DNA from: an uncultured Phycisphaeraceae bacterium
Lineage (GTDB): Bacteria > Planctomycetota > Phycisphaerae > Phycisphaerales > UBA1924
Direction of reading: 5' to 3'
Assembly: GCA_964516725.1 (NCBI GenBank)
Contig: CAZEZV010000001.1
Span: 1 to 41,085 of the forward strand
DNA: 41,085 bases
Made by a program: the position numbers and the translations under genes. The notes below the pieces were generated by a model. It was not told the DNA's origin and searched no databases. It was given only the letters and a program-made list of their open reading frames with translations. Every line of letters starts with the position of its first letter. Position 1 is the first letter of the stretch. Of this stretch, positions 5,443 through 40,187 are shown piece by piece.

Positions 5443-5503
5443 GTCAATGGAGGGTACACCTGGCTACCCCCACGCTCTGCGTGGGGTGGTCACCAAGGCT
5501 GCT

Positions 5504-7486: not shown

Positions 7487-7510
7487 CTTCAATCGCCTCC
7501 TGCGTCGCGC

Positions 7511-9473: not shown

Positions 9474-9493
9474 CCTACCAACCACCGAATATG

Positions 9494-9564
9494 GGTAGCA
9501 CGGGCGTCCTGCCCGTGTCAGACCTCAAGCGACGTTCGTCACAGGCGAGGACGCCTGTGCTACC
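9494..9564. repeat. Family B REP-like palindromic pair, copy 1
   Basis: ggtagcacgggcgtcctgcccgtg (9494-9517) and cacaggcgaggacgcctgtgctacc (9540-9564). Each unit is itself a hairpin, and the two units are in inverted orientation. The pair lies between the ybeY stop and the corC start. Confidence 0.75.
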
Positions 9565-11495: not shown

Positions 11496-11567
11496 GCCCG
11501 GCGTCTCGCCGGGCACTTTTCGTGAGTGGCGACAATCACATGCGACCTGCCTGGCGGGGACGCCGGG
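11496..11567. repeat. degenerate Family B-like hairpin pair
   Basis: gcccggcg-tct-cgccgggc (11496-11514) and cctggcg-ggga-cgccggg (11550-11567). They share the GGCGTC(C)TCGCC / GGCG(A)GGACGCC cores and the two-unit inverted layout of Family B. Confidence 0.35.
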
Positions 11568-11609
11568 CCTACTGGGGGCAGTTCTTGCGCTTGCGACAAT
11601 ATTAGTCGG

Positions 11610-12665
11610 CTATTTGTGCCCGAACACGAGAGCGACGGCGATTGTGATTGCAATGAACGCGATTCCGGCGACTCGGAGAGGATTGTCCTTGAGGAACATC
11701 TCGGTAGGGTCGTCGTAGGCGCCGCGTTCGATGAGGACCATGCTCCGCAAGAGGGCGTAGGTGGCGGGGAGGATGGTGAACCAGAGCCAGTTGATGCCCG
11801 CGGGGACAAGGGCTGTCGCGAAGGCCGCCGCGCTTTCACGGGATTGGACGTAAAACGCGTAGGTGATCAGCGTTGCAACCGCCGTGACCACGACGCTCAT
11901 GCGGAGGAGTTCGTCGGTGTACTTACCCTGGACGCTGCGGGCGGCCGTAGCGTCATACCCAGCGGCTTCCGCGGTGCGGCGTTCGCCCAGGCGTTTGGCG
12001 AAGGCGAGGAACATGGCGAGGAAGAGCGTGCAGTTGAGCAGCCACGTGCTGGGCATGATGCCGACGGCGACGCAGCCGCCAATGACGCGGAGGACGAAAC
12101 CAAGGGAAAGGCTCAAAACATCGGCAATGACGCGGTGTTTGAGGAAGGCAGAGTACAGCAGAACGTTGAACATGTAGAGGCCCACGAGCAGGAGCGTGCC
12201 GGAACGGAAGTTGCTGTTCAAGAGGAGAGACAGGGCCGCGCCTGCCAGGACGAGCGCGATCATCACGCCAACAGCGAGGGCGGGCGAGATCGCGCCGCTG
12301 GCAATGGGGCGATTGCGTTTTCTGGGGTGGTGACGATCGGCTTCGACGTCGCGGAGATCGTTGTAGATGTAGCAGGCGCTGCTCGCCAAGGCGAAGACTC
12401 CCGCGGCGATCAGGCCTTGGATGATGATGTCCTGCCAGCGGTCTTTGGGGATGTCGCGCAGTCCGTACAGGGGACCCAGAAGTACGAACACGCTCTTGAC
12501 CCACTGATGGGGGCGAGCGAGTTTGACAAGAGCCAGAAGAGAGAACGGGGCGGGCACTATTGGCACATGGGGCGTACTGGCGGCGTTCGCTGCCGGTTCA
12601 ATCGGGGATTGAGCGGCAGAAACTTGCGACGCAGGTTGGGGAACAGGGGCGGACACGTCCGACAA
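11610..12665 (-). CDS. UbiA-family polyprenyl-phosphate phosphoribosyltransferase (decaprenyl-phosphate phosphoribosyltransferase-like)
   Basis: Polytopic. The motif YIYNDLRDVEADRHHPRKRNRPIASG closely resembles the NDxxDxxxD...KR.RPiA.G signature of the Rv3806c-type family. The start is uncertain: TTG 12665, or GTG at 12569 or 12560. Confidence 0.88.
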   Translation of the reverse strand: MSDVSAPVPQPASQVSAAQSPIEPAANAASTPHVPIVPAPFSLLALVKLARPHQWVKSVFVLLGPLYGLRDIPKDRWQDIIIQGLIAAGVFALASSACYIYNDLRDVEADRHHPRKRNRPIASGAISPALAVGVMIALVLAGAALSLLLNSNFRSGTLLLVGLYMFNVLLYSAFLKHRVIADVLSLSLGFVLRVIGGCVAVGIMPSTWLLNCTLFLAMFLAFAKRLGERRTAEAAGYDATAARSVQGKYTDELLRMSVVVTAVATLITYAFYVQSRESAAAFATALVPAGINWLWFTILPATYALLRSMVLIERGAYDDPTEMFLKDNPLRVAGIAFIAITIAVALVFGHK

Positions 12666-12770
12666 TCATCGGCTAGAAACGCCTTGAACCACACACCACA
12701 CGAATCTCCTGCCACCGGGCAACCTCGATCAGATTCAGGCAGCCATGCCGACGGGCAGGGTGTTGCGAAT

Positions 12771-14303
12771 GTGTGGCTGAATGTGGCGGTTGTGGTTGGC
12801 GTGTTTCTGGTTGTGGCTGGGTCGTTCATTGTGGCCCGGGTGATTCCCAATCGAGCTGTGTTTGATCAGCGTCACTACCACCAGCCAACCATCGAAGGGT
12901 TTGCGAAAGAGTGGCCCGCGATTGATGTATGGGATTACCTCTCGGCGACGACGCCTGGGTATCACTGGGTGTTGGCTGGTGTGCTGAAGGTGTTCGGGGC
13001 GGGTGTCGCGGGGTTGCAGGTTGTGTCGATGGTTTTCAGCGCGGGGTTGTTTGGGTTGGTGGCGTGGATGGTGGGGAGAGGGATGAGGGATCGAAGTGGT
13101 GCCGCGCCTGGGTTTGGCGCGGCGTTCCTGTGCATGCCGATTGTGTGCTGTACCTACTTCATTGTGGGCGGGATTGCGCTGCTGCCTGACAACGCGGGGT
13201 GGCTTGGGGTGTGCGCGGTGCTCGCGCTGGCCCTGCATGCGAAGTCGATGCGGGCCTTGTGTGGTGTGGGTTGCGTGGTGCTGCTCGCGCTGGTGCTGAC
13301 GCGGCAGGTGCATCTGTGGACGTGCGGATTGTTGGTGCTGGCGTCGTGGTTGGGGTGTGCGGTGCCAAATGTCACGCAAGATGTCAAGCCTGATTTTTCG
13401 ACAAGGCGATTTTCGCGAGCAGCAATCGCGGCGATTGCTTGCGTGCCGGCGCTGATTGCGGTTGCGCTCTTCGTGCGGTATTGGGGCGGGCTTGTGCCGC
13501 CCCGGTTTCAGTTGCAGTATCCGCCCAAGCCGGTATCGCAATTCTTCGCGTCGCCCGCGCCGGCCTTTGTGCTGAGTGTTTGCGCGATCTTTGGGGCGTT
13601 TTTGATCGGGTTTTGGTGGCAGGGGTTTCGTGCGTTGTGGACGCGGATGCGATGGGTGTTGTTGGTCGTGGTTGTCGTTGGGATGGCTCTGGCGGTTGCG
13701 CCCGCGACAAACTTTGACTATCTCGCGGGTCGGCGAACGGGGTTGTGGAACCTGACGCGGCACGCGCCAGTGCTGTTTGAACGCACGAGTGTGTTGATCG
13801 CGGTGCTTGCGCCGATCGGAGGCGTTGTGCTGGCATCGTTCTTTGTGTCGCTGCGCGAGCGTGGGTTGGTTCGTGATGCCGCAATCCTGCTTGCGACACT
13901 GGCAGGCTACGCAATCGTGCTCACGGCGAGCAACGAGGTGTGGCAGCGGTATGTGGAGCCGTTGGTGTTGGTGGTGATGGTGTTGATGTGTGCAAGGGTT
14001 GGGTTTGAAACTGACGCAGCACTGACGTCGCGGAGCATGGTTGGTGCTGACTCTGAAAAAGGCGCCCCTTCAGTGACGCAAGGCACCGACCGGCTGTCGC
14101 CAATCGGTGGCACGGCGATCAGGTGCGTCGGCGTCGTGAGTCTGTCGATCGCTTTGATTGCGATCACGTTGAAGACTATGAGTGTTGGGTTAGAGAAACT
14201 GAGCGATCCGCCGCCGCCGGCGATTACGGCGGATCACATTGGCCCTACGCCGCCGGTGTTGCTGCCAAGGCCAGAGAAGCCTGCGGGCAAAAAGTTCTGG
14301 TAG
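12771..14303 (+). CDS. GT-C-fold (ArnT/PMT-like) integral membrane glycosyltransferase, putative
   Basis: This is the 3' 510 codons of the 925-aa track ORF, with at least 10 predicted TM helices. The proposed GTG start at 12771 gives (M)WLNVAVVVGVFLVVAG. The upstream part of the ORF is antisense to the UbiA gene and is rejected. The function call rests on topology and context only. Confidence 0.7.
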   Translation: MWLNVAVVVGVFLVVAGSFIVARVIPNRAVFDQRHYHQPTIEGFAKEWPAIDVWDYLSATTPGYHWVLAGVLKVFGAGVAGLQVVSMVFSAGLFGLVAWMVGRGMRDRSGAAPGFGAAFLCMPIVCCTYFIVGGIALLPDNAGWLGVCAVLALALHAKSMRALCGVGCVVLLALVLTRQVHLWTCGLLVLASWLGCAVPNVTQDVKPDFSTRRFSRAAIAAIACVPALIAVALFVRYWGGLVPPRFQLQYPPKPVSQFFASPAPAFVLSVCAIFGAFLIGFWWQGFRALWTRMRWVLLVVVVVGMALAVAPATNFDYLAGRRTGLWNLTRHAPVLFERTSVLIAVLAPIGGVVLASFFVSLRERGLVRDAAILLATLAGYAIVLTASNEVWQRYVEPLVLVVMVLMCARVGFETDAALTSRSMVGADSEKGAPSVTQGTDRLSPIGGTAIRCVGVVSLSIALIAITLKTMSVGLEKLSDPPPPAITADHIGPTPPVLLPRPEKPAGKKFW

Positions 14304-24499: not shown

Positions 24500-25167
24500 G
24501 GTGTTGAGCGTGCACAATCCAACGAAACGCTCGTGTCCTTCTTTACAAACTTCTGGAAGCGGTCCCCGCTTCGCTTGTGAGTCTACTCGTTCAACGTGAC
24601 CTACTCAAAGTCCCAACTGTTGTTTGATGCTCTCTTGACGATCCGTGTCACTCAGTATGTCCGTCGTACACGGAGCGTTCGTCAACTTCATGTTCATGCG
24701 AGCAGGTGGGCAATATGGTTGCATCTCTCAGCAGAAAATACAAATCGCTCTAGGTGGGTGTCGGCAAGTCTCTACGTCGCCTTTCCACAATGCTTTGCGC
24801 GATGCGACGGGGTGACGATTGGGTAAGGGTCGTGTGAAGATGGTGTGTGTTACCGGCAGTTGCCGACGTTGTCTGGTTGTCGGCAGAATCAGCGCAAAGA
24901 CAACAGGACCGAGAATAACGGACATTGGCGCGAGCGGGCTTCGACGCGTGCTTGGCGTGAGTGATCGGATTGCGTGAAAGCGCGAGCATGAAACCTTGCT
25001 CCTCGAATACACATTCGCGTCGTGCTTGAAGCGGTTGCAATACGCGAGCCGCCTGATTACTGCAATGCCGGTTGTTCACTCGCACATGGTGCGTTCTTTT
25101 TCGCACTTGGGTTGAAGCAACACGAATCATCGTGGCACGAAGCGCAAATCACCTACGATCCGCGGGT

Positions 25168-25242
25168 GGGTGGCACAGGCGTCCTCGCCTGTGCCCAGGC
25201 GCCAGTGACATTCAAGCACAGGCGAGGACGCCTGTGCCACCC
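25168..25242. repeat. Family B REP-like palindromic pair, copy 2
   Basis: gggtggcacaggcgtcctcgcctgtgc (25168-25194) is the exact reverse complement of 25216-25242, with a 21-nt spacer. Each unit is itself a hairpin (cacaggcg-tcct-cgcctgtg). Confidence 0.85.
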
Positions 25243-25264
25243 TTCACACGGAGTATTCGCCAAG

Positions 25265-26656
25265 GTGGGCGGGATTGTGGCTCGATTTCTGGACCCGGTG
25301 ACGTCGCTGGTTGACGCGTTTGTGGCGTACCTGTGCGGAACCGACTTGGCAATCGTTCGTCGCGCGTTTGCGATCGAGTTTTTCGTGACATGCCTCGTCA
25401 TGATCACGATGGCGACGATCGAGGGTGGCGTGATCGCGGTCTTCGCGAAGCAGACGTTTGCATCGAGCGTGCCGGAATCGCAGCTCAACGTCATGGTCGG
25501 GCTCCTGGGGGCGATGGGGGAACTTGCGAACATCCTGAGTTTTTTCTGGAGCAGCGTGAGTCATGGCAAGCCCAAGGCGAAGTTGTTGTCTGTCATGTTG
25601 TCGTTGATGGTGCTCAGTGTCGGTGTGATCGCACTTGTGCCCAACAGTGGGCTGGGCGCATTGCTGCTGCTAACCGGGCTGGTGCTGGCGTCGAGAATCT
25701 GCTGGAGCGGGTTCGTCACGCTGCGACCCACGCTGTGGCGCGAGAATTACCCGCCGCAGGTGAGGACACGCGTGGTGGGGATTCTCTCATCGGTGCAGGT
25801 GTTGTGTGTTGCGACGATCGGCCCGGCGCTTGCGGCGACACTCGACTCAAACCCGGGCGCGTATCGCGTGTTTCTGCCGATCGCGGCGCTCTTTGGCGCG
25901 TGCGGGGCGATTCTTGCAACGCGGATGAGAATGCGGCACGAGGCGAGGATTGTTCGAGAAGAGCTCGCGGGCAGCGAAGACGGAAGCGGGACGTCGACCA
26001 AGACGATGAAGCCCTGGCACGGGCCTTTAGTGATGTTGCGTGTGCTGCGGCAGGACCGCTGGTACGCGCAGTTCATGCTGTGGATGTTTGTACTGGGCTT
26101 TGGCAACCTCACCATCACACCCACGCTCGTGATTTCATTGAAAGAAGAGTTTGGCTTCGGGCACCTGCAGAGCGTACTGGTCACGAGCACCGTGCCCTGC
26201 ATCTTCACGCTGCTGGCGATTCCGTTCTGGCGAAGATTGCTTGACAGCGCACACGTCGTGAAGTTTCGCAGCACGCATAGCTGGGTGTTTGTCGCTGGCG
26301 GCGTGTGCTACACGTGTGGAGCGTGGTTTGACGCCGCTGCGTGGTACTTCGCGGGCGCGGCGCTCATGGGCATCGGCTACGGCGGAGGCAGCCTCGCGTG
26401 GAACATCGGGCACGTGGACTTTGCGCGGCCCAGTGAGACGAGCCGGTACATGGCAACGCACGTCACGCTGAATGGCATTCGCGGGTTGCTCGCACCGATT
26501 GCGGTGACGACGGTGTACGAGTTGCTCAAGAAGAAGGGGCTCGACGCGCACTTGTGGGTGCAATTGGGGTCGCTGGTGATTTCGATGGTGGGAGCTGGCG
26601 GGTTTGTATATTTAAGGTGGCGGATGGGGAAGTTGATGGAGAAGAATCGGCGGTGA
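25265..26656 (+). CDS. MFS-type transporter
   Basis: 12-TM layout with a central charged loop (RMRMRHEARIVREELAGSEDG). The track ORF's N-terminal 81 aa cover the Family B repeat and are rejected. In-frame GTG at 25265 or 25277 is proposed as the start. Confidence 0.8.
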   Translation: MGGIVARFLDPVTSLVDAFVAYLCGTDLAIVRRAFAIEFFVTCLVMITMATIEGGVIAVFAKQTFASSVPESQLNVMVGLLGAMGELANILSFFWSSVSHGKPKAKLLSVMLSLMVLSVGVIALVPNSGLGALLLLTGLVLASRICWSGFVTLRPTLWRENYPPQVRTRVVGILSSVQVLCVATIGPALAATLDSNPGAYRVFLPIAALFGACGAILATRMRMRHEARIVREELAGSEDGSGTSTKTMKPWHGPLVMLRVLRQDRWYAQFMLWMFVLGFGNLTITPTLVISLKEEFGFGHLQSVLVTSTVPCIFTLLAIPFWRRLLDSAHVVKFRSTHSWVFVAGGVCYTCGAWFDAAAWYFAGAALMGIGYGGGSLAWNIGHVDFARPSETSRYMATHVTLNGIRGLLAPIAVTTVYELLKKKGLDAHLWVQLGSLVISMVGAGGFVYLRWRMGKLMEKNRR

Positions 26657-26668: not shown

Positions 26669-29600
26669 TTAGATCGCAGGCACGATCTGGGGCGACGGTT
26701 CGAGCAGCAGTTTCTGTGGAGCAAACGGCGCGACGAGGCTGTCTGCATTGATGGTCACGCGCGACCAGGCGTGCTTAGCGACGACGTTGGCCGGTTGCGG
26801 GAGAGGTTCGATTCGAGAGTGCGGTGGCGCGTCGATGGCGGTTGGCGTGTCGAGCGCGCAGCAGCCGCAGGTGAGCATCCAGCGGTCAACAAACGACTCA
26901 ATGTCCTCGTAGGTCGCGTCGCAGCGCGTGAGTCGCGGGACGAACCAGGTGCGGGGGAGACAAGCGGGACCGCGCTTGGTGCGTTCGTCGAGGGCGTGCT
27001 GCATCGCTTCCCAGCACTGCTCGATCGTGTCGCGGTGCGAGCGGGCGAGCCAGGTTTCGGGCGTGTCGCCCGGCATGCCGATGCTGACAACGTCAACGCC
27101 CAGGTCCAACGCCTCGATGAGCGATTCTCCTTGCGTGCGAGTGATGTGTTCGTGCGAAGTGTGGACGTGAACGCCCGCAAAGCCCAGCGGCTTGGCAAGA
27201 CTTGCCAGTTCGCGCCAGGGGCCGCTGCCGGAGGCGTCGTGGATCGTCAGCGCGAGCGGTTGGCCTGCGTCTGCCGCAGCGTGGGACGCGATCCTGAGGC
27301 GCGACGCCAAGCTTGCAGTGTCGGCGACGTCACGCGAACAGGTGCTCAACTCGAAGACCTCGGGAAGTTTGGTTGCGGCGCTTTCAAGCCACGACGAGAA
27401 GGCGGTTGCAACTTCTGAGCCGGCCGAGAGCGTCACGTTCGTTTGTGAGGCGTGCTCGACGAAGGCGCGGAAGTTCGCATCGTCGTATGTGCAGCGCACG
27501 AGCACATCGCGCATTGCCGGCGGGACTTGCACGCAGAAGGGCTTGGCGATGGGGTCCGGCTGCGGCGTGCGCGGGTGGTAGCCCACGAGTTGGCCCAGTG
27601 TGCCCAAGATCGCGCGGGCGCTGTTTGAGGTGTCGGCATCACTTCTATGAGTGAAGCCGGCGAGCTGTGCGAGAATGTCGCTGCCGACGACCGCACCGGC
27701 GAGGCCAACGCCAGCCTGCGAGAAACAGAACGCATGGCGGCGCGGGGCTTCGCGATAGCGGGCGATTATCGTGTCAGTCGTTGTTGGGTCCAGGGCGATC
27801 CAATCTGCGCCAACGAGCAGTGCGGCGTCGATGCCGTGCTGCCGAGCGAGCGAGTTCCATAGTGCTGGGTGGAGAAGCTCGTCGTAGACGCTGAGGTTGG
27901 CGATACCGGTGCGCCAGGATTGGCGAGACCAGAGGCGGGCCGCGCGGACACTGCTGAGGCGGCTTTGGACTAACTCGGCTTGTTGATCGGTGACGGTGTG
28001 CACGCGGATCGGCTTTTTGCCCTGCTGAAAGAACCACTCTTTGCGAGAAGTGTCGTGCCCAAGCGGAGAGAGAAGCGATTCGGTGCGCAGCGCGTTGCCG
28101 GTGATGAGAAGGACACCGTCGAGTTCTTTCAACTGGCTCAGGCGATCAAGCGCCGCGGCGAGAATCGAAGCGTGGTTCTTGCCAGCGAAAACAACCTGTT
28201 GATCGAGCGCGCGCGGGCCGATCGCCGAGCGAGCGTGATCAACCCAGACGCACGCCCACACGTTGCGGCGCCGGCCGTCAACTCCCGTTTGGTCGGCGAG
28301 GTCGATGGATTGGGGCGTCACGCTGCGAGTTGGAGCGACACCAGTCTTGGTTGCGGCAAGAGTGTCGGCGAGCATGTCGCTGGCGGTGCTGGCGGACTCG
28401 CGCAGCCATGTGACGTTCTGAACATCTCGCTCGATTTGCTTGCGTTGCTTTTCAAGTGGCGAGAGCGAATCGTCAAGCTCGATGGCGCGGTCGGCTTTGA
28501 AGCGGTTGAACTGGCCTGTTTGATTCAGGTGTTGCACGAGCCAGTTGGCTTCGAGCGACGTGATCTCAACGGCCCGCTTCTGCACCCGATCAATCAGGCG
28601 ATTGACGAGAGCCTGGTCGCTGTGATGCTTGAGCATCTTGCTCAGGTCTTCGATGGTTTCCGCGCACGCGCCGCGGATTGTTGTGCATTCGCGCGAGAGT
28701 GTTTCGAGGCGGGCGCAGAGGGCTTGCTTGCGATCTGTGGTGGGACTTGGCGTTGGGAACGTCGCGAGCGGTTGCGTGGGCGCAAGCGGCGCGTCGGCAG
28801 GGGCGGCGACATCCGCGGTGAAAGAGACTTCGAGAGAGGATGCCGCCGGTGCAGCGGATGGGGATGGCGATGTTGCTGAAGTTGTGCGCAAAGCGCCGAG
28901 TTGCTCAAGTGCCTTGCGCAGCGGCATGATGCGCGTGTGCTGTTTCAGCACGCCGCCCTCGGTGGCGTCGATTGTGGTCTTGCCGGCGTCTTTGTCTCGC
29001 AAGAAGTCTCGCTCGAACTGGAGCAAGTACGTCGCCATCTGCTCATCGGTAAAAACGGGTCGGCCTTGCTGATCAAGGGTTTTGCGAAGGTGTGCGCGCA
29101 TGCGCATGATGCGTTGCCACTCGAGCATTTCGAGGGAGCAGAAGTCGTTGAGTTCGGCGGACCAGACTTGGTGAATCGCCGCGCCGGGGGCGTAGTACTG
29201 GCCATCAGTGAAGCCAAGGTCTTGGCCGATGAGCAGCACAGGGTCGCAGCCCAGGTACCGCGCGAGGTAATAGGAAAGATGAGCGACGGTCGCGCCCATG
29301 GGGAGTTGGCCCATGTCGCGAGCGAGTGACTTGCCCAGGACGCGCGTGAGCGTGTCATCGTGAACGCAGCGGATGGTGCCAGGAAACGCACGAAGGATCG
29401 CGCAGTTGGCTTTGGGTTCGACGACGAGCGTGACACCTTCGACGTCTTCCCTCGTGAGGCCTTCGTAGAAGCGACTGCTGATCTCGTGATAGTCCAGTGC
29501 CGTCACGAAGTGTGGCTTGATGCCCTTCGAGAGCAATTGCTTCAGAACCGTTTGCGCGGCGATGATGACAACGCGATCGCGGATGCCGGGAGTCAGCAGT

Positions 29601-30475
29601 ATGTCAATGTTGCGGCGCAGGCTTGGACCGGCGGAGACGACGATCGCCGGGCGATCTTTCTGGCTGTCTTTGAGGTCGGCGATGCCAGGAGCGTGGAGGT
29701 ACACGTTGGCGTTGCCGAGCAGGTTGCGCAGTGTGATTTCAGAGTGCGCAAGCGTGGTGATGACGTTGGTGCGGACACCTTTGACGACGGTGGTGAGGGT
29801 GTTGGCAAAGGTCTCGCCATCAGTGCCGATGCGCAGTTTGCTGGAGGGATGGTCAACAAGCGAAACGCCCGCAGCGACGAGGCCTTCGAGGCCTTCAAGC
29901 CCGGCGGCAGTCGGACCGGTTTCGTCGGCGCGAGTGATGAGGATGAAGCGGGTTTGGCTCAGCCACGGTGTGCAGTCGATTCGACCAAGCACGTCGCGCA
30001 AGAGAGACACATCGGGCTCAAAGCAGATGATGAGGCCCGTGCCACTCACGCGCTGGGCGAGGTGGCGCAGATGGTGACCAAGGGCAAAGCCGCGGACGAC
30101 GATCGCCGCGCTGGCTTTGATGTCGACGCTCTCGGCAAGGCGCTTGGCTTCGGTGTCGGCGGCGCGGGCGCTTGCAAGGAGCCTGCCCCCACTCTTGTCA
30201 AGGCGCGCGGTCAGCAGGTTGTCGTCGCTGTGCAGGAACGTAACGCCGAACGAGGGCTGCGCGGCGCGGATGTCGCGCACGGCGGACGCGCTGCGGAAGG
30301 CGAGGGCCCCCAGGTTGCGCTCGAGGGTGTTGTGGTCGAAGGGGGGGGGCGGGGCAGAGGTTTGTTGTTGGGTGTTGGTCACAGGGCGCTCCGCGCAGGG
30401 GACGACGCCGGCATCCTGCCGGGGACTTGGAGTCATCGGCGGGACTGTGCGATTTTCAGCAAAATCATAGGGCAT
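26669..30475 (-). CDS. Maf-type (DUF115/MptE-like) flagellin glycosyltransferase fused to a ~600-aa C-terminal extension
   Basis: 1268 aa from ATG 30475. The N-terminal half has the Maf core (PAIVVSAGPSL, FVTALDYHE, LIGQDLGFTDGQYY, IDATEGG). After a P/A/S linker and a helical region come an SpsF/cytidylyltransferase-like stretch (VWACVWVDHARSAIGP...GKNHASILAAALDRLSQLKELDGVLLITGN) and a TIM-barrel-like segment that resembles a radical-SAM core but lacks the CxxxCxxC triad (VFELSTCSRDVADT). Confidence 0.9.
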   Translation of the reverse strand: MPYDFAENRTVPPMTPSPRQDAGVVPCAERPVTNTQQQTSAPPPPFDHNTLERNLGALAFRSASAVRDIRAAQPSFGVTFLHSDDNLLTARLDKSGGRLLASARAADTEAKRLAESVDIKASAAIVVRGFALGHHLRHLAQRVSGTGLIICFEPDVSLLRDVLGRIDCTPWLSQTRFILITRADETGPTAAGLEGLEGLVAAGVSLVDHPSSKLRIGTDGETFANTLTTVVKGVRTNVITTLAHSEITLRNLLGNANVYLHAPGIADLKDSQKDRPAIVVSAGPSLRRNIDILLTPGIRDRVVIIAAQTVLKQLLSKGIKPHFVTALDYHEISSRFYEGLTREDVEGVTLVVEPKANCAILRAFPGTIRCVHDDTLTRVLGKSLARDMGQLPMGATVAHLSYYLARYLGCDPVLLIGQDLGFTDGQYYAPGAAIHQVWSAELNDFCSLEMLEWQRIMRMRAHLRKTLDQQGRPVFTDEQMATYLLQFERDFLRDKDAGKTTIDATEGGVLKQHTRIMPLRKALEQLGALRTTSATSPSPSAAPAASSLEVSFTADVAAPADAPLAPTQPLATFPTPSPTTDRKQALCARLETLSRECTTIRGACAETIEDLSKMLKHHSDQALVNRLIDRVQKRAVEITSLEANWLVQHLNQTGQFNRFKADRAIELDDSLSPLEKQRKQIERDVQNVTWLRESASTASDMLADTLAATKTGVAPTRSVTPQSIDLADQTGVDGRRRNVWACVWVDHARSAIGPRALDQQVVFAGKNHASILAAALDRLSQLKELDGVLLITGNALRTESLLSPLGHDTSRKEWFFQQGKKPIRVHTVTDQQAELVQSRLSSVRAARLWSRQSWRTGIANLSVYDELLHPALWNSLARQHGIDAALLVGADWIALDPTTTDTIIARYREAPRRHAFCFSQAGVGLAGAVVGSDILAQLAGFTHRSDADTSNSARAILGTLGQLVGYHPRTPQPDPIAKPFCVQVPPAMRDVLVRCTYDDANFRAFVEHASQTNVTLSAGSEVATAFSSWLESAATKLPEVFELSTCSRDVADTASLASRLRIASHAAADAGQPLALTIHDASGSGPWRELASLAKPLGFAGVHVHTSHEHITRTQGESLIEALDLGVDVVSIGMPGDTPETWLARSHRDTIEQCWEAMQHALDERTKRGPACLPRTWFVPRLTRCDATYEDIESFVDRWMLTCGCCALDTPTAIDAPPHSRIEPLPQPANVVAKHAWSRVTINADSLVAPFAPQKLLLEPSPQIVPAI

Positions 30476-30525: not shown

Positions 30526-31227
30526 GTGAGCGTACAACAGAGCGTGCTTTTTCTTGCCCAGCAATCTGGCGGCGGCTCTGGCGGTCTTAGCGGCATTCTG
30601 GACATTCCGGCCCCCCCACCATTGCCGTCAGGCGGCGGGTTGCAGGCGTTTTTGTTCGAGAAACCTTGGGTCGGGGTTGCGATCCTTGCGCTGACGGGCA
30701 TCGGGCTGCTGGTGTTTTATGCAAAGCGAGAGCAGTTCAAGCTCGGTGCGCAACGGGGCGGGCCGCTTTTGATCTTGGCAGGGGTGTGGGTGCTCGCCGC
30801 GGCGTTGATCGAAACGCGGCATGAGCAGATGCGGATGGCGACGCAGCGCCTCATTGAATCGGTGACGCGGGCGGACAGCAACACTCTGCGGCAGCAACTC
30901 ACGCGCGACGCCAAGTTGCTGTACTACGGCGGGCTGCCATTGCAAGCGATTCTGGATCGCGTCGTGGCGGAGATGGGGCCGGGGAAGGAGTACAACGTCA
31001 GCGAGTTTTCGATTGTGGAGTTTCAGTCGCAGGGCTTGAAGGAAGCAGTGGGCATTTCCGCGGGGCAAGCGGGCGGAGTTGTTCAGGTAAAGGTGCGGGT
31101 GGTGTCGAGCGTGTATGGCGTACCGCACCTGTCGTGGTGGAGGCTGGACATGATCCAGGACCCGGATGGTGAGTGGCGGACGTCGGTGATTTCACCGCTG
31201 GCGATTCAGTTTCGATCGTTGCAGTAG
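30526..31227 (+). CDS. hypothetical membrane protein (2 TM + soluble domain)
   Basis: GTG start. G/P-rich N-terminus, TM helices WVGVAILALTGIGLLVF and LLILAGVWVLAAALI, then a domain of about 130 aa. Divergent from maf. Confidence 0.65.
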   Translation: MSVQQSVLFLAQQSGGGSGGLSGILDIPAPPPLPSGGGLQAFLFEKPWVGVAILALTGIGLLVFYAKREQFKLGAQRGGPLLILAGVWVLAAALIETRHEQMRMATQRLIESVTRADSNTLRQQLTRDAKLLYYGGLPLQAILDRVVAEMGPGKEYNVSEFSIVEFQSQGLKEAVGISAGQAGGVVQVKVRVVSSVYGVPHLSWWRLDMIQDPDGEWRTSVISPLAIQFRSLQ

Positions 31228-31301
31228 ACGCGATGTTGTTTGGCCGATAGAGGATGGCCGGAGCGCAGTGTTTCAGCGCCGTGATACGCTCTCCGCCCCG
31301 C

Positions 31302-32258
31302 ATGCCCACCCCTGTCGCCAGCCTCCTCATCAACACGCTCAACCGCAAGGACGACTTGCGCATCGCGCTCAATTCTGTCTTTGAGCAGACAGTGCCGCTC
31401 GAGGTGATTGTCGTGGATGATGGCTCGACAGACGGTACCAGCGATATGGTGCGGGCCGAGTTTCCGCAGGTGAAGATGCTCCGGAACGAGCAGCCGCTGG
31501 GAATCATCGCGGCGAGAAATCGTGCGGCGCATGAAGCGACGCACAACATCATGTTCACGATGGATGATGACGCGACGTTTTCGTCAAAGACGACTGCGGA
31601 GCGAGTGCTGAAGCGATTTGATCATCCGCGAGTGGGCGCTGTGACTCTGCCGCTGATTGATCACATTGAAGGGGTGGCGCAGAAGCCGTCTCTGCCGATC
31701 AGCGAGGAGACGCCTGCGGACTTTCCCGTGACGTTTGCGTATACGGGTGGCGGCAACGCGAAACGGCGGGACTTGTTCCTGGCGCTGGGCGGGTATGGCG
31801 GCGTCGGGAGGCAAGGGGAAGAGTCGAATTACTGCATCAAGATGCTCAGCGCGGGATACATCGTGCGGATCGCGTGCGCGGGGTGGCTCAATCACTATCC
31901 GATCGTCAAGAAGCGCGACGAGAACAAGATCGCGTATTCGGGGGCGATGAACCGCGTGATTTACACGATGCAGCACGTGCCGTTTCCGGAGGTTGTGAAG
32001 CACATGGCTGGGGTGCTGGTGAATCAGGTTCGCGTTGGGATTCGTGACGGGCGGCTGAAGCACTGCTTGAAGGGTGTGTGGGATGGGTGGTGTTGGTATC
32101 GCGCGAATCGACAGGTTCGCAAGCCGATCACGTCGCAGGTGTATCAGTTGAGCCGGGTGCTTGTGACGAAGGAGGCGCTGCCATTTTCGGAGGTTGAGGG
32201 GATGCTGCCGCCCATGAAGACGGTGGAAGAGATTCGGGAGATGAGTGGTGCAGGGTGA
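31302..32258 (+). CDS. family 2 glycosyltransferase
   Basis: ATG 31302 gives MPTPVASLLINTLNR. GT2 motifs LEVIVVDDGSTDGT and FTMDDDATF. Confidence 0.9.
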   Translation: MPTPVASLLINTLNRKDDLRIALNSVFEQTVPLEVIVVDDGSTDGTSDMVRAEFPQVKMLRNEQPLGIIAARNRAAHEATHNIMFTMDDDATFSSKTTAERVLKRFDHPRVGAVTLPLIDHIEGVAQKPSLPISEETPADFPVTFAYTGGGNAKRRDLFLALGGYGGVGRQGEESNYCIKMLSAGYIVRIACAGWLNHYPIVKKRDENKIAYSGAMNRVIYTMQHVPFPEVVKHMAGVLVNQVRVGIRDGRLKHCLKGVWDGWCWYRANRQVRKPITSQVYQLSRVLVTKEALPFSEVEGMLPPMKTVEEIREMSGAG

Positions 32259-32273
32259 TCAAGCACGAGTATT

Positions 32274-32482
32274 CTGCCGCAACGCGGCAGAGGTGAATAG
32301 CCGTGGATAGCCGCGAAGCGGCATCCACGGCGCTGTGTTGGCACAAAGCAGCACCACGACGTGGTGCAGGAAAGTGTGTTGCCGCACCATCATCGCTTCG
32401 CGATGACACATCCAAGAACGCGCGTTCCGTGGATGCCGCTTCGCGGCTATCCACGGCTATTGACCGAGACGGCTACGCCGTC
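32274..32482. repeat. Family C 209-bp mosaic palindromic element, copy 2
   Basis: The arms aatagccgtggatagccgcgaagcggcatccacgg (32296-32330) and 32427-32461 are perfect reverse complements (35 of 35). Each arm is also its own hairpin (ccgtggat-a-gccgc-gaa-gcggc-atccacgg). Outer hairpins ctgccgc-aac-gcggcag and gacggc-tac-gccgtc, and a central hairpin gcaccac-gacg-gtggtgc. Confidence 0.9.
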
Positions 32483-32573
32483 CAAGCAAGGGCGGTTTGG
32501 GGACCTTTGCGGCGCGACGATCTTGTTGACGCGCGTGATCTGACATTTCGAGAGTTGCGGAGTACCGTTGCAC

Positions 32574-33566
32574 ATGTCAACAACAGCGCAGCAGATTCCG
32601 GCCGGTTCTCGAGTCATTGTGACCGGCGGGGCGGGGTTTTTAGGCAAGTTTGTGATCGAGAAGCTGCTCGCGCGAGGAGTGACGCGCGACAACATCTTCA
32701 TTCCGCGCCGCAAGGACTTTGACTTGACGCAGCAGGCCGACGTCGCTCGCATGTATCGCACGGCGTTCAAGCACTTCCCGCCTGATCTTGTGATTCACCT
32801 CGCTGCGGAGGTTGGCGGGATCGGCGCGAACCAGAAGAATCCGGGTCGGTACTTCTACGCGAACATGGCAATGGCGCTGCACTTGATTGAGCAGTTCCGC
32901 GAGGAGGGACTGGTTTCGCGCGGAGCGAAGTTTGTGCAGGTTGGGACCATCTGCGCGTATCCAAAGTTCACGCCGGTGCCGTTCAAGGAAGAGGACTTGT
33001 GGAACGGGTATCCGGAAGAGACCAACGCGCCGTATGGCGTTGCCAAGAAAGCCGCGTGGCAGATGCTGGACGCGTACAAACTGCAGTACGGCATGAAGAG
33101 CGCATATGTGCTGCCGGTGAACTTGTATGGGCCGGGCGACAACTTTGACTTGTTCAGCAGCCATGTGATCCCCGCGCTGATTCGCAAGGCGGTTGTGGCT
33201 CAAGAGCGCGGAGACAAAGAGATCGTGTGCTGGGGCACAGGCAGCGCGTCGCGCGAGTTCTTGTACGTTGAAGACGCGGCGGAGGGAACGCTGCGCGCGG
33301 CAGAAGTCATGGACTCCCCCACGCCTCTCAACCTTGGCGCCGGCTTCGAAATCAAGATCAAGGACCTTGTCGAGTTGATCGTGAAGCTGGTGGGGTTCAA
33401 GGGGAACATCGTGTGGGACACGAGCAAGCCCGACGGACAGCCGCGGCGGCAATTGAGCGTTGAGTTGGCGGCGAAGCAGCTTGGTTGGCGGGCACAAGTG
33501 CCGTTTGAGGAGGGGCTCAAGCGGACGATTGCATGGTTCAGGGATCACAAGGGCAAGATCAAGTAA
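32574..33566 (+). CDS. fcl: GDP-L-fucose synthase (GDP-4-keto-6-deoxy-D-mannose 3,5-epimerase/4-reductase)
   Basis: The track start is TTG; ATG 32574 is used. [36 protein letters not shown] and NLYGPGDNF fit the Fcl/WcaG pattern. Confidence 0.93.
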
Positions 33567-33726: not shown

Positions 33727-33900
33727 CAGACACGAGATCGATTGGGCACGGCATGGCAACGCGGTTATTGGCCGCGACGCATGCATGATGACGCACATTT
33801 CGCGCGATCGTCCTGTGCGCGTGCGATTCAGCCACACGATTTTCCATCGCGTTCCAACTCGCCGCGAAGGCGCGCACTATGAGTGCCGATTGTCGGTTTG

Positions 33901-34746
33901 ATGCGGGGCATCTCCATCAACACCGACCTGCGAGCGCTCATCAGCAACTCGGCGATCTCTCGCGCGTCGCGAATCGTTGACAAGAGCATGGAAAGGCTCG
34001 CAACAGGGCAGAGGATCAACCGCGCGAGCGATGATCCGTCGGGCATGGTCGCTGTCGAGGGGTTCAAGGGGCGGATCAAGGAAATCAACGAAGAAATCAA
34101 GTCGCTCGAGATCGAAGAACGATGGCTCGGCGCTCGCGATGGCGCGATAAGCGTCATCAGCGACATGATGATCGAACTCCAGTCACTCGTCGTTGCGTCG
34201 GCGAATGTCGGCGCGATGTCCGACCAAGAGCGCGAGGCGATTCAGTCGCAGGTCGACGGCATCATCGATGGCGTGGACTACTTGACGCGCACAGCCGAGT
34301 TCAACGGGCGGCAGATACTCGACGGATTCTCCTCGGGCAATCTCGGGCAAACCATGGTGCCGACCACGAATCCGGATGGCTCGCCCGGCTTGCGGACACT
34401 TTCGCTCGCATCCATGCGCAGCGGCGGGGCGCTCAATCTCGTGAATGGCGACCGCGAAGCCGCACAGACCATGGCCGATTCGCTCGCGAAATGGGCAAGC
34501 GGGCAGCGCGGCGCGATCGGAAACTACGCGAAGTCGCTGGAAAGCAAACGCGACACACTGCGCGTTGAGCTCGAGAACATCACACAAATGAAGTCTTTGA
34601 TTGGCGATACGGACTACGCCGCGGAGACATCAGAACTGGTGCGCGGGCAAATCCTCCAACAGATGTCGATGGCGACGCGCCAGATCGCAATGGACTCCCG
34701 GCAAGACACGGTATTGTCGTTGCTGCAAGGCGCGATGAAGGCGTAA
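33901..34746 (+). CDS. flagellin
   Basis: MRGISINTDLRAL...MERLATGQRINRASDDPSG is the conserved N-terminal D0/D1 region. The C-terminus reads IGDTDYAAETSELVRGQILQQMSMA. The variable region is short. Start chosen by alignment to the usual M-x3-4-INTN pattern; GTG 33883 is an alternative. Confidence 0.9.
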   Translation: MRGISINTDLRALISNSAISRASRIVDKSMERLATGQRINRASDDPSGMVAVEGFKGRIKEINEEIKSLEIEERWLGARDGAISVISDMMIELQSLVVASANVGAMSDQEREAIQSQVDGIIDGVDYLTRTAEFNGRQILDGFSSGNLGQTMVPTTNPDGSPGLRTLSLASMRSGGALNLVNGDREAAQTMADSLAKWASGQRGAIGNYAKSLESKRDTLRVELENITQMKSLIGDTDYAAETSELVRGQILQQMSMATRQIAMDSRQDTVLSLLQGAMKA

Positions 34747-36842: not shown

Positions 36843-37934
36843 GTGTCAACAAAGATTGTCATCAAGGACTTGGTCAAGGAGTATGCGGGCGCAACCAAGA
36901 ACGATGCGGCGCGAGCTGTAGACAACGTCTCGCTGGCCATTGATGCCGGCGAGCTTTTCTTTCTGCTCGGCCCGTCTGGTTGTGGAAAGACGACGCTGCT
37001 GCGGATGATAGCAGGCTTCATCGAGCCAACGTCCGGTAATATTTTGTTCTTGGGTTCGACCGGCGAGCGCGATGTGACATATCTGCCTGCAGAAAAGCGG
37101 GATACAGGCATGGTGTTCCAAAGCTATGCCCTCTGGCCGCACATGAGTGTTGAGGAGAACGTTGGCTTCGGCTTGGAAGTGCGAGGCGTCCCCAAAGAGT
37201 CAAGAGCGAACCTTGTCCGCGAAGCCCTCGCGGTCGTCAAGATGGCGGAGTATGCAAGTAGAAAGCCAACACAATTATCGGGCGGTCAGCAGCAGCGCGT
37301 AGCGCTCGCCCGCGCAATCGTTGTGAAACCAAGTGTTCTGCTTTTGGACGAACCGCTCTCAAACCTCGACGCGAGACTCAGAGTGGAGCTCAGATCAGAG
37401 GTTCGAAGAATCTGCAAGGCATCTGGCATAACCACGGTCTATGTCACCCATGATCAAAGCGAAGCACTGAGTATGGCGGATCGAATTGGAATTATGCGAT
37501 CTGGTAGAATTCGACAGGTGGGCTCGCCTAAGGACTTGTATACGTCGCCAAACAGCAAGTTTGAAGCTCAGTTTTTGGGTGACGTGAACTTCAACGAAGG
37601 TCTGGTTTCACGTGAAACATCGGAGATGGTTGAAGTCAAAGCACTAGGCGGGCTTATTCGCGCTCGGTCACGTCATGGGCAGCCAAAGGAAGGCGAACCA
37701 TGCATTGTTGCGTCGCGCCCCGAGAGTTGGGTCATCGGAAGCTCGAAAGAAAACAGGTTCAACGCGAGCGTCGTGGATCAGACGTATCTCGGAAGTACCG
37801 TTCATGTTAACGTGAACGTCAATCAGCAACGACTAGATATTGCGACGCTCAATCCAGGCAGTAATTTTGAACTTCCGAGCAACTGCGAAGTGTCAATTGA
37901 CTCCAAAGACGTTATCCTATTACCAATGGAGTGA
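36843..37934 (+). CDS. ABC transporter ATP-binding protein (PotA/FbpC/MalK-like with C-terminal TOBE-type domain); no permease adjacent
   Basis: GTG start. Walker A GPSGCGKTT, Q-loop FQSYALWPH, signature LSGGQQQRVALARA, Walker B LLLDEPLSNLD, and H-loop. Confidence 0.93.
   Translation: MSTKIVIKDLVKEYAGATKNDAARAVDNVSLAIDAGELFFLLGPSGCGKTTLLRMIAGFIEPTSGNILFLGSTGERDVTYLPAEKRDTGMVFQSYALWPHMSVEENVGFGLEVRGVPKESRANLVREALAVVKMAEYASRKPTQLSGGQQQRVALARAIVVKPSVLLLDEPLSNLDARLRVELRSEVRRICKASGITTVYVTHDQSEALSMADRIGIMRSGRIRQVGSPKDLYTSPNSKFEAQFLGDVNFNEGLVSRETSEMVEVKALGGLIRARSRHGQPKEGEPCIVASRPESWVIGSSKENRFNASVVDQTYLGSTVHVNVNVNQQRLDIATLNPGSNFELPSNCEVSIDSKDVILLPME
37604..37619. promoter_or_regulatory. parS centromere-like site
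   Basis: GGTTTCACGTGAAACA matches the widespread parS consensus TGTTTCACGTGAAACA at 15 of 16 positions, and the 14-bp core is a perfect palindrome. It lies inside the ABC ATPase CDS, about 370 bp upstream of parB. Confidence 0.7.
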
Positions 37935-37989
37935 CCCATTCGTTCCACATGGAACAGGAGAATCGTCGTAACTCTAAGGAGTGTCAGGC

Positions 37990-38952
37990 ATGGAAGCTAA
38001 CGCAGAAATGAAGAATCGTCGTCTGGGGAAGGGTATTGGGAGTCTTATTAATCTCACGCCCGTGTCCGTTGCAAGCACACATCCAACCAAGACTGAAACG
38101 ATCGAAGCGCACAAGCAAGCCGAAGAGGTCAATAAACAGTTATCGGGCCTATCGTCGGTTTCTGTGAACTCTCTTCGCCCTTCTCGGTTTCAGCCGCGCA
38201 AGGTATTCGATACGACACAGCTCCAACAACTTTCGCAGTCAATCCAGCACAGCGGACTCATGCAGCCCGTCGTTGTTCGCAGGCTTCAAGTCGTCGATGG
38301 GGACATTCAATATGAGTTGGTTGCCGGTGAGCGTCGCTGGCGTGCGGCCATGATGGGGGGGCTTAAGTCGATCCCTGCGATCATTCGAGACCTCTCTGAT
38401 GAAGAAGCGGCCGAGTGGGGGCTTGTGGAAAATATCCAGCGCGAGGACTTGAACCCGATGGATCGTGCGTTTGCGCTGCGCGGGCTTGTCGATCGCTTCG
38501 GATTAACGCAGGAACAGGTCGCGAAACGCATTGGATTTGATCGTGCAACCGTTGCGAACTTCCTGCGATTGTGCGATCTCGAGCCAGAAATTGCGCAGCT
38601 GCTGTCAGCGGGAAAAATATCTGCTGGGCACGGGCGCGCGTTGCTCGCGTTGCCTGCCGGTGAAGAGCGAATTCGTGCTGCACAGGCGGCGGCGCAGTTC
38701 GCCTGGTCGGTCCGCAAACTGGAAGAGATTGCGCGCACCCGTTCCACTGAAAAGCAGATCGAGAACGAAACAACAGCGACACCGAGAGACGCAGTGCTCA
38801 GAGACCTTGAGCGTCAGCTCGGGCAGCACCTCGGCACAAAGGTGAACATACTGGCGGACAAGCACGGCAAAAGAGGGCGCGTGATACTTGAGTACTACGG
38901 CATAGACCATTTTGACGGTTTGATTTCAAAGATGGGACTGCGAACCGTATAA
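37990..38952 (+). CDS. parB: chromosome partitioning protein ParB/Spo0J
   Basis: AAGGAG sits 8 nt upstream of ATG 37990. RRLGKGIGSLI, YELVAGERRWRAA, LVENIQREDLNPMD and the HTH region LTQEQVAKRIGFDRATVANFLRL. Confidence 0.95.
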   Translation: MEANAEMKNRRLGKGIGSLINLTPVSVASTHPTKTETIEAHKQAEEVNKQLSGLSSVSVNSLRPSRFQPRKVFDTTQLQQLSQSIQHSGLMQPVVVRRLQVVDGDIQYELVAGERRWRAAMMGGLKSIPAIIRDLSDEEAAEWGLVENIQREDLNPMDRAFALRGLVDRFGLTQEQVAKRIGFDRATVANFLRLCDLEPEIAQLLSAGKISAGHGRALLALPAGEERIRAAQAAAQFAWSVRKLEEIARTRSTEKQIENETTATPRDAVLRDLERQLGQHLGTKVNILADKHGKRGRVILEYYGIDHFDGLISKMGLRTV

Positions 38953-39124
38953 AAAGAGAACAACCGCGGCGCTAATGTTTGGTCGATGTTTGCAGCACGT
39001 ACTAAGTATTGTTACTCAATTTGTTATGTAGACGTCGACTTGTGCAGATAGCATTCTAACAATGCGCTGCTGCTCTAGCTCGGAGAGTGAAGCGGTTTGT
39101 ATCACACTTTTCGAGGAGTATTAC

Positions 39125-39517
39125 ATGGGTCGTCGTCCACGATCGGGGTCACTTGCATCGCTTCCGTTGGGTCAGTTGCACGCAGAAATTCGCCGCCGCC
39201 AGCGTGGGATGGGTCCGCTCATGCGTAAGCGAGCAAAAGTTGCCGACAAACTAGCGGCGATTGATGCGAAGATCAAGGAATTGGGGGGCGCGGTCGCAGG
39301 AGTTCGCACTCGCCCTTCAAACAGCATGAGCTTGATTGAGGCACTTCAAAAGACGCTGTCCGGAAAAACGATGGGCGTGACTGAGGCGGCGGACGCGGTT
39401 CGCAAGAGCGGTTACAACACCAACGCAGCGAACTTCCGCACAATGGTCAACCAAGCACTCATCAAGCACAAGAACAAGTTCAAGAAGGTTGAGCGCGGCC
39501 GGTACACCGCCGCGTGA
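39125..39517 (+). CDS. small basic protein with C-terminal HARE-HTH/winged-helix-like domain
   Basis: GAGGAG RBS 6 nt upstream of ATG 39125. Basic coiled N-terminus (RRRQRGMGPLMRKRAKVADKLAAIDAKIKEL). The C-terminal LIEALQKTLSGKTMGVTEAADAVRKSGY....FRTMVNQALIKHKNKFKKVERGRY resembles HARE-HTH. Confidence 0.7.
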   Translation: MGRRPRSGSLASLPLGQLHAEIRRRQRGMGPLMRKRAKVADKLAAIDAKIKELGGAVAGVRTRPSNSMSLIEALQKTLSGKTMGVTEAADAVRKSGYNTNAANFRTMVNQALIKHKNKFKKVERGRYTAA

Positions 39518-39564
39518 AGCGGTTGAATAGTGAAATCGCGGGTCAATCAGTTGCGACAACGAAG

Positions 39565-39596
39565 AACGTCCGGCGAAAGCCGGACGTTTTCTTTTG
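39565..39596 (+). terminator. rho-independent terminator
   Basis: aacgtccggc-gaaa-gccggacgtt followed by ttcttttg, 48 nt after the stop at 39517. It lies between convergent genes, so it may act in both directions. Confidence 0.8.
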
Positions 39597-39646
39597 AAGT
39601 CAGATGACACACGGCAACACACAGTGGACGTGTGCTGGTGTACAGC

Positions 39647-39928
39647 TCAGAACGGCGAAGTCGTCGGCTGGAGGCGGCTTGGGCGGTCGATCAGCATGAT
39701 GCGCTGGAAGTCGGCCCACAACATGCGGTCGTTGGCGTCCATCGTGTAGTACATGCGATTGTCGAAGTCGATGGGGCGCTCGGTGAGCGTGTCGAGTTCG
39801 GGGGTCACGTCGCCTTGAACTGCAGAATGGCGGCCGCCGTCATTGCGGCCTGTAGAGGCGCAACCAGCAAGAGCACAAACCGCGAGCGAGGCAACACAGA
39901 AACAACGAAGAGCGGTGGAACGACGCAT
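39647..39928 (-). CDS. small lipoprotein
   Basis: MRRSTALRCFCVASLAVCALAGC is a signal peptide with a lipobox. 93 aa. Confidence 0.65.
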   Translation of the reverse strand: MRRSTALRCFCVASLAVCALAGCASTGRNDGGRHSAVQGDVTPELDTLTERPIDFDNRMYYTMDANDRMLWADFQRIMLIDRPSRLQPTTSPF

Positions 39929-40187
39929 CGTGCAGACTCCTGCAAATGGAAAAGGTTTCGGACAGGGCCTCTATCAATCGGACAATCGCCGATTCACCCA
40001 TGAACATGTCCTAGGCCCACCCTAGGGGCAGCAGTGTATCCGCATCGGCGGGGCTGAGTGTTCCAAGGAAAAGGCAAAGGCTTCTCAGGACTGCCGGAAC
40101 GGCAGCGGGGGGCCGGGGTGGCGTTGACCGGCATCCAAACCGACCGGGTGAAGTCGTTGTTTAGGCTGCTACGGACTCTATCCGGGT

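Follow-up and report, generated by a model that had tools for sequence, protein, structure and literature searches.

A Maf-type protein fused in frame to a putative pseudoenzyme partner in a Phycisphaeraceae bacterium

Introduction

The principal 'sialyltransferases' of bacterial flagellin are the Maf enzymes. These flagellin nonulosonic-acid glycosyltransferases are described by the Pfam families PF01973 and PF20157, and a structure is available for the protein from Magnetospirillum magneticum (5MU5). Their reconstitution has been hard because components were missing, and GlfM was recognised only in 2023 (bioRxiv 10.1101/2023.12.03.569772). The Mafs studied so far use either a TPR domain (Maf-1) or the separate GlfM protein (Maf-2), and an interconversion of split and fused arrangements, tripartite versus bipartite, has been proposed for Maf systems (bioRxiv 10.1101/2023.12.03.569772). 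Here we analyse a stretch of 41,085 nucleotides from an uncultured Phycisphaeraceae bacterium (GenBank assembly GCA_964516725.1, contig CAZEZV010000001.1, positions 1 to 41,085; hereafter the window) and, within it, a minus-strand gene at 26669–30475 whose product (1268 residues, followed by a stop codon) joins a Maf to a module resembling spiro-SPASM proteins. Taking sequence comparisons and structural models together, we consider it fairly probable that its product is a complete flagellin nonulosonic-acid glycosyltransferase of the Maf type with a non-catalytic accessory partner, that is, a pseudoenzyme, attached in frame.

The window protein resembles the studied Mafs in its DUF115 core and, as judged by alignment, in an N-terminal and a C-terminal helical domain; a flagellin gene lies nearby, and its relatives sit in nonulosonate biosynthesis operons. 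It differs from the studied Mafs by an extra C-terminal module of ~525 residues (referred to below as the C-half) and by a lineage-specific insertion rich in proline, alanine and serine (P/A/S). The arrangement recalls GlfM and the TPR domain of Maf-1, in that the accessory module is encoded directly downstream of maf, either separately or fused to the Maf C terminus. However, GlfM and the TPR domain have four-helix-bundle and TPR folds, whereas the fold predicted for the present module is alpha/beta and bears no sequence or fold relationship to them; the likeness is confined to how the genes are arranged and to the role presumed for the module. The Maf part is of the ordinary kind. Neither the partner family nor the fusion has been studied, abundant though they are in Phycisphaerae: literature searches on spiro-SPASM/TIGR04321, on Maf in connection with radical-SAM-like proteins, on nonulosonic acids and radical SAM in Leptospira, and on Maf in Phycisphaerae found nothing relevant.

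Results and discussion

A complete Maf followed by a partner module

The open reading frame (ORF) starts with ATG, ends with TAA and comprises 1268 codons. Its GC content at third codon positions (GC3) is 0.67–0.93 per 60-codon window, the P/A/S-rich stretch excepted (0.58), and this uniformly high value indicates a single continuous coding frame throughout the ORF. PF01973 (MptE-like/DUF115, the Maf core) matches residues 251–424 (29204–29725; this and all other segments of the gene are on the minus strand) over model positions 2–170 of 171, with an E-value of 1.1e-35 and 123.4 bits against a cutoff of 34.6. Both the 1268-residue ORF and its Maf core, as given in a preliminary description of this DNA made from the letters alone, are thereby upheld. 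The Maf motifs GPSL (279–286) and GQDLGF (417–422) are present. Scanning the whole protein against Pfam and NCBIfam yielded nothing beyond PF01973 above threshold, the only hint being NTP_transf_3 (E 0.035). PF20157, the Maf N-terminal domain, reaches 13.8 bits in the window protein against a cutoff of 23.5, and 23.8 bits in an unfused orthologue aligned with it end to end.

Residues 50–710 align end to end with the standalone 643-residue Maf of another Phycisphaeraceae metagenome-assembled genome (MAG; locus L001) at 39% identity (E 9e-143). Within this region, the Maf N-terminal domain and catalytic core occupy residues 50–528 (28892–30328), again with 39% identity to the L001 Maf. They are followed by the P/A/S-rich stretch (residues ~529–589; 28709–28891) and by a helical region (residues ~590–710; 28346–28708). 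The preliminary description had placed both of these after the Maf core and called the first a linker, but neither is outside Maf. Since the P/A/S stretch is gapped in alignments with unfused Mafs, it is an insertion inside Maf, lineage-specific and fast-evolving; and since the alignment with the L001 Maf (residues 504–624) covers residues 590–710, the helical region belongs to Maf as its C-terminal domain. Corresponding parts of 13 other unfused Mafs align with it as well. A close relative with the fused form, locus L003, comes from an independent MAG (Phycisphaerales STL-PLA8) and encodes a fused ORF of 1303 residues with 75% overall identity and the same junction. Compared with L003, the P/A/S insertion is 54% identical and the flanking Maf core 90%; this low-complexity stretch is probably a disordered loop between the Maf core and the helical domain. 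It was considered as an inter-module linker and rejected because it lies within Maf. The actual junction is found at residues ~711–744 (~34 residues; 28244–28345), where homology to Maf has ended and that to the partner has not yet begun, and is 88% identical to that of L003. Judged by these alignments, residues ~50–710 make up a complete Maf, with N-terminal domain, DUF115 core and C-terminal helical domain.

The first 49 residues (30329–30475) are an N-terminal extension lacking homology to unfused Mafs, the alignment with the L001 Maf starting at residue 50; the true start codon may lie downstream of the annotated one, for example at M14. A longer N terminus is also seen at locus L006, in the complete genome of Planctomycetales bacterium ZRK34 (CP050848.1), where the unfused Maf ORF (5227–7779; 850 residues) is ~200 residues longer N-terminally than the other Mafs and its homology begins at residue 207, perhaps because the N terminus is extended or because the start codon was called too early.

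Split and fused relatives

In most related Phycisphaerae, the C-half has a gene of its own, which directly follows maf and is translationally coupled to it. Word-index searches with residues 696–1268 returned only a standalone protein of 560 residues (P0001; 28% identity to the C-half, E 3e-31) and a 274-residue fragment, despite the large size of the family. The P0001 gene sits between a gene for a 643-residue Maf and one for a PseF–NeuB fusion. A scan limited to one genome per species yielded 16 loci, all from Phycisphaerae or other Planctomycetota. At 13 of them, maf (~640 residues; 850 in L006) is directly followed by a separate gene for a C-half homologue of ~500–590 residues, the two genes sharing a 4-nt overlap in L006, L010 and L015. 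The in-frame fusion constitutes Rosetta-stone-type evidence that both proteins work together. Of the 13 split-gene loci, 11 have a gene for a PseF-like cytidylyltransferase, sometimes fused to NeuB, as the next gene downstream, and so does L003; three fused lineages (L019, L021 and L022) possess one operon comprising the fusion, CTP_transf_3 (with a 4-nt overlap), NeuB, Epimerase_2 and HDOD genes. In these relatives, genes for CMP-nonulosonate synthetase, NeuB and a NeuC-like epimerase thus accompany that of the partner in a conserved operon.

The size of the family became apparent from an exhaustive HMMER search, in which a two-sequence profile was run against 1.84 billion cluster representatives (50% identity) and 965 proteins were found at E ≤ 1e-3, 445 of them at E ≤ 1e-30. 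A Maf part is present in 79 of the best 150 representatives, 70 of which are full-length fusions of 1107–1276 residues; at least 70 protein clusters (50% identity) therefore carry the Maf–partner fusion. In public records, fused members carry generic labels ('DUF115 domain-containing protein', 'MptE-like protein' or 'Maf family protein'), fragments appear as 'radical SAM protein' or 'SPASM domain-containing protein', and all named members are from Planctomycetota. In a rough neighbour-joining tree of the C-half, built from 140 sequences of which some are probably truncated ORFs, fused and standalone forms fall into mostly pure clades, with at most nine changes of state. The fusion is old and recurrent in databases. 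The architecture, described as unusual in the preliminary description, is indeed so by comparison with the studied Mafs; among Phycisphaerae, on the other hand, it is common.

In many relatives, the two parts are encoded side by side by separate genes, some of which overlap by 4 nt, and this could be taken to mean that an assembly error or a frameshift merged two neighbouring genes in the window. We see virtually no chance of this. The same in-frame junction is present in L003, with the linker conserved as stated above; the full-length fused representatives are numerous among the best matches; one cluster holds members of 1209 residues, identical in length, from several independent assemblies; and GC3 is uniform along the ORF. 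In addition, the fused forms share derived traits, such as the loss of SPASM cysteines, which would not be expected from random merging. As the fusion recurs in many independent assemblies, it is neither an assembly artefact nor rare; the distribution, which the preliminary description had proposed to check, gives no support to a merge. The artefact explanation is effectively refuted, and the 1268-residue fusion is a real gene, the product of neither chance nor merging.

Fold and family of the partner

By sequence comparison, the partner belongs to a so far uncharacterised family, with NCBIfam TIGR04321 ('spiro-SPASM protein') as a distant relative. The parts of the partner are a cytidylyltransferase-fold domain, a radical-SAM-fold domain and, only in unfused versions, a SPASM Fe–S domain. 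In the window protein, the cytidylyltransferase-like domain, devoid of a canonical P-loop, extends over residues ~745–1035 (27371–28243), as delimited by AlphaFold2, Foldseek and hhalign. The radical-SAM-like partial barrel, devoid of cluster ligands, was assigned with Foldseek and the family profile to residues ~1036–1210 (26846–27370). The C-terminal tail (residues 1211–1268; 26672–26845) is a remnant of the SPASM region from which the four conserved cysteines have been lost and whose last 17 residues are predicted to be disordered.

An AlphaFold2 model of residues 741–1268, computed on a 53-member alignment, has a mean predicted local distance difference test score (pLDDT) of 90.3 and a predicted template modelling score (pTM) of 0.90. 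When this model was compared with the PDB by Foldseek, the Leptospira cytidylyltransferase 6oew was matched with a template modelling score (TM) of 0.63 on the target and a probability of ~1, and the radical SAM proteins DesII, GDGT-MAS, BlsE, PqqE, EpeE and HemN likewise at a probability of ~1; LipA was also found. The first 295 residues of the C-half modelled alone gave a pLDDT of 92.3, and Foldseek with this N-terminal domain retrieved almost only cytidylyltransferases (6oew, KdsB, TarI, IspD and CMP-Neu5Ac synthetase). A reading of the domain as a GT-A glycosyltransferase was rejected, since enzymes of that kind appeared at ranks 33 and 41 only, behind ~30 cytidylyltransferase chains. The fold is that of the CMP-sugar cytidylyltransferases in general (CTP_transf_3/NTP_transf_3/IspD, for instance PseF, NeuA, KdsB and 6oew; TM 0.5–0.6), and GADWIALDP in the C-half is a remnant of their 'G-x-D-x-P-L-x-D-P'-like strand motif. 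Unlike in these enzymes, the Arg and Lys of the P-loop are not conserved in the C-half, which also contains large insertions (e.g. ARxW..WRGG..YDELL).

Profile comparisons point in the same direction. Among the 53 homologues, Pfam Radical_SAM is matched by 29 (E < 1e-3), SPASM by 22 and NTP_transf_3 by 14, while TIGR04321 is matched by 46 (best E 8.5e-45) and several genuine radical SAM/SPASM families by smaller numbers. The 53-sequence profile run against PDB sequences detected BtrN (7e-5), BlsE (5e-4) and PqqE (1e-3), as well as GDGT-MAS and DesII (E-values up to 5e-3), and IspD at 0.01–0.02; a two-sequence profile run against the same sequences gave nothing useful. Using hhalign, the family aligned with the neighbouring true synthetases over its first ~100 residues (probability 77%, E 2e-5). 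With radical SAM/SPASM enzymes (PF04055 plus PF13186; BtrN, PqqE, DesII, BlsE), the C-half shares a partial TIM barrel and profile-level similarity. Fold similarity to both nucleotidyltransferase and radical-SAM families was thus found in the C-half once domain annotation had been run, and the CMP-sugar-synthetase-type domain and the radical-SAM barrel without CxxxCxxC that the preliminary description had proposed are both confirmed at this level.

The relationship with TIGR04321 is nevertheless a distant one. Standalone homologues span model positions ~86–506 of 510, a stretch that takes in a portion of the nucleotidyltransferase-like region, followed by the radical-SAM-like region and the SPASM domain, and keep the domain order over most of the model; their scores, 59–146 bits, are all below the cutoff of 250 bits. 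The hosts are Planctomycetota, as opposed to the spirochaetes of the family name, and neither TIGR04321 nor Radical_SAM matches the window sequence itself. The window C-half alone, searched against Pfam and NCBIfam, gave nothing significant, NTP_transf_3 being below threshold (14.7 bits versus 27).

Lost catalytic signatures and remaining constraint

In the alignment of the family profile with BtrN, the CNRTCWYC loop of the latter faces the segment E-L-[TC]-[TP]-x-R-x-x-x-G. The corresponding stretch of the window protein, VFELSTCSRDVADT (residues 1040–1053; 27317–27358), is a vestige of the CxxxCxxC loop that has kept the first cysteine alone: C1046 aligns with the first Cys of the motif, and the preliminary description was right to read this stretch as a degenerate cluster loop. 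In the 152 aligned sequences (151 representatives and the window), the column of the first Cys holds Thr in 88 and Cys in 38, Cys is not among the four commonest residues in the second column, and the third column is Gly in 124. None of the 151 representatives and none of 18 locus ORFs has CxxxCxxC at this site. Unlike radical SAM enzymes, the family lacks the motif at the homologous loop, and reductive cleavage of S-adenosylmethionine (SAM) is therefore not expected. Cluster-less relatives of such a kind may have been catalogued before, as the name of NCBIfam TIGR04347 (pseudo-SAM/SPASM) suggests.

The unfused relatives resemble SPASM enzymes in keeping a SPASM-type cysteine set: these residues (C490, C508, C551 and C554 of P0001) are retained in ~36–40 of 59 standalone forms. 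The window protein has none of the four, and 69 of 70 fused forms have lost them too. The decay from enzyme to pseudoenzyme was apparently stepwise, the radical SAM cluster having been lost family-wide and the SPASM cluster after fusion. A CGCC motif, which the preliminary description had located at the C terminus, is present (residues 1203–1206; 26858–26869), but it lies ~60 residues before the end of the protein and is not conserved, being AGCC in L003 and AGHA in most homologues; it was rejected as a metal site on that account.

The signature of the cytidylyltransferase-like domain has decayed as well. According to hhalign, the family sequence D-x-x-R-(G/S)-G-L-G-x-P-R stands opposite R-A-G-S-K-G-L-P-x-K of the true synthetases, and the P-loop counterpart in the window protein is VDHARSAIGPRA, in which both lysines are absent. 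This bears on the possibility that the gene encodes a bifunctional enzyme, the nucleotidyltransferase-like domain making CMP-nonulosonate from CTP and nonulosonate and the Maf domain transferring it, in line with the coupling of sugar activation to transfer in one polypeptide envisaged in the preliminary description. Such an arrangement would agree with the cytidylyltransferase fold and with the lack of a separate synthetase gene in the window, yet it appears very unlikely: the signature R-x-G-S-K-G-L-P-x-K is not kept, and relatives, fused or split, encode a canonical CTP_transf_3 protein directly downstream, which would make a second synthetase redundant. The genuine synthetase is encoded separately from the C-half in relatives, and the neighbouring PseF-like synthetases carry the canonical RAGSKGLPxKN loop.

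In spite of these losses, the protein is under constraint. The ratios of nonsynonymous to synonymous substitution rates (dN/dS) in comparison with L003, which are approximate given a dS of ~1, are 0.066 for the Maf core, 0.12 for the cytidylyltransferase-like domain, 0.09 for the radical-SAM-like domain, 0.10 for the junction, 0.22 for the tail and 0.21 for the P/A/S insertion. The whole ORF, both degenerate domains included, is under purifying selection. Moreover, nine of the ten residues invariant across the 53 members lie in the cytidylyltransferase-like domain (R38, R107, W114, R115, D125, E126, G184, D234 and R254 in C-half numbering).

Purifying selection on both degenerate domains and the concentration of invariant Arg, Asp, Glu and Trp residues in one of them are also what one would look for if the C-half were still an enzyme, performing non-canonical, non-radical chemistry on the CMP-nonulosonate donor or on the flagellin-bound sugar by means of conserved acidic and basic residues in the cytidylyltransferase-like cleft, coupled to transfer. 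The location of the module in nonulosonate biosynthesis operons and the probable auxiliary Fe–S site retained by standalone forms fit a tailoring activity of this kind, too. We regard it as rather doubtful, however, because the P-loop lysines and the radical SAM cluster ligands are gone, the loss of Fe–S ligands in nearly all fused forms leaves no family-wide conserved redox chemistry, and the GGE-like SAM-binding motif of the window protein is further decayed (TIHDASGSGPW versus GGLGDALLHP).

A putative accessory subunit of Maf

Under the reading that we favour, a complete Maf fused to a pseudoenzyme, the C-half would act as a non-catalytic accessory subunit of Maf. Its most conserved part, the cytidylyltransferase-like cleft, would most plausibly bind CMP-nonulosonate as the donor, or a related nucleotide; the flagellin acceptor is an alternative ligand. 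Such binding would confer donor or acceptor specificity on Maf or improve its efficiency. The logic would parallel that of GlfM, which serves Maf-2 as a separate protein, and of the TPR domain, which serves Maf-1 in fused form. In the fused lineage, the Fe–S-binding parts would have become dispensable and then been lost.

Several observations weigh against this reading. Many strictly conserved charged residues of the cytidylyltransferase-like domain (Arg, Asp and Glu, together with Trp) would be as much at home in an active site as in a binding site. GlfM and the TPR domain are helical bundles without similarity to the C-half module, so that the analogy is a functional one only. The window protein is below the curated thresholds for NTP_transf_3, Radical_SAM, SPASM and TIGR04321, the assignments resting on homologues and on predicted structure. 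Finally, no homologue of NeuB, PseF or CMP-nonulosonate synthetase is encoded within the 41-kb window, which implies either that the nonulosonate genes are located elsewhere or that the donor sugar differs.

It is tempting to speculate further that the module is a Maf accessory factor of a third class not recognised before, derived from two inactivated enzymes, whose cytidylyltransferase-derived cleft would capture the CMP-nonulosonate made by the synthetase of the adjacent gene and present it to Maf, providing donor channelling or specificity. The SPASM Fe–S domain of the unfused versions would then be a redox-sensitive or structural switch that was dispensed with on fusion. We hold this to be possible but tentative. 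Were it true, and were the spirochaete spiro-SPASM proteins to do the same job, a component of sialylation-type flagellin glycosylation missing until now would be shared across phyla. More generally, a large, conserved and apparently undescribed family is genetically tied to maf, either as the adjacent downstream gene or by in-frame fusion. As a possible new accessory subunit of flagellin glycosylation, the partner is a concrete candidate, and the orphan NCBIfam 'spiro-SPASM protein' gains a functional context that can be tested.

Neighbouring genes

The presumed acceptor is encoded 3.4 kb from the fusion gene, by a flagellin gene of 287 codons at 33883–34746 on the plus strand (Flagellin_N 1.6e-21, Flagellin_C 2e-7); the same arrangement is found in L003. 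On this divergent side, the order is 233-residue membrane protein, GT2, Fcl-like, flagellin and HtrA, syntenic with L003. Synteny stops exactly at the fusion stop codon, beyond which L003 has the gene for a PseF-like CMP-nonulosonate synthetase (9458–10363) and the window that of a major facilitator superfamily (MFS) transporter on the other strand (25022–26656, plus strand).

The predicted membrane protein of 233 residues (30526–31227, plus strand) is encoded divergently to the fusion, and its position beside maf or the fusion is conserved in other Phycisphaerae. It has a G-rich/PPPLP N terminus, hydrophobic segments and a globular C terminus, and no match to it was found in Pfam or NCBIfam. 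Homologues occupy the same divergent position in L003, L016 and L019 (38% identity, E 3e-32). Divergent genes for 190–224 residues are found in L019, L021 and L022, those of L021 and L022 being compared by size and position, and the counterpart in L001 shows a weak match to DUF4440 (NTF2-like). The 233-residue protein may be a further component of the module. In L021 and L022, the HDOD gene of the fused operon is followed by a gene for a LON_substr_bdg protein; it is possible that both are regulatory genes linked to the module.

Between the fusion and the flagellin gene, genes for a GT2 glycosyltransferase and an Fcl-like epimerase/reductase (31254–33566, plus strand) are conserved in L003, the Fcl-like protein being similar to GDP-fucose synthases (268 bits against a cutoff of 500). 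These enzymes might make or add another sugar, either for flagellin or for some other glycoconjugate.

Two other regions of the window stand out by composition. A 925-residue ORF without a Pfam match (11526–14303, plus strand) lies in a strand-biased region (GC skew 0.29 and AT skew -0.43 at 13001–14000); no tandem repeats were found at 11–15 kb. At 37001–40000, the GC content falls to 0.52–0.56, compared with ~0.60–0.65 elsewhere. The genes of this low-GC region encode an ABC-transporter ATPase (36843–37934) and a ParB/Noc-like protein (37981–38952), and the segment may have been acquired horizontally or be otherwise compositionally distinct.

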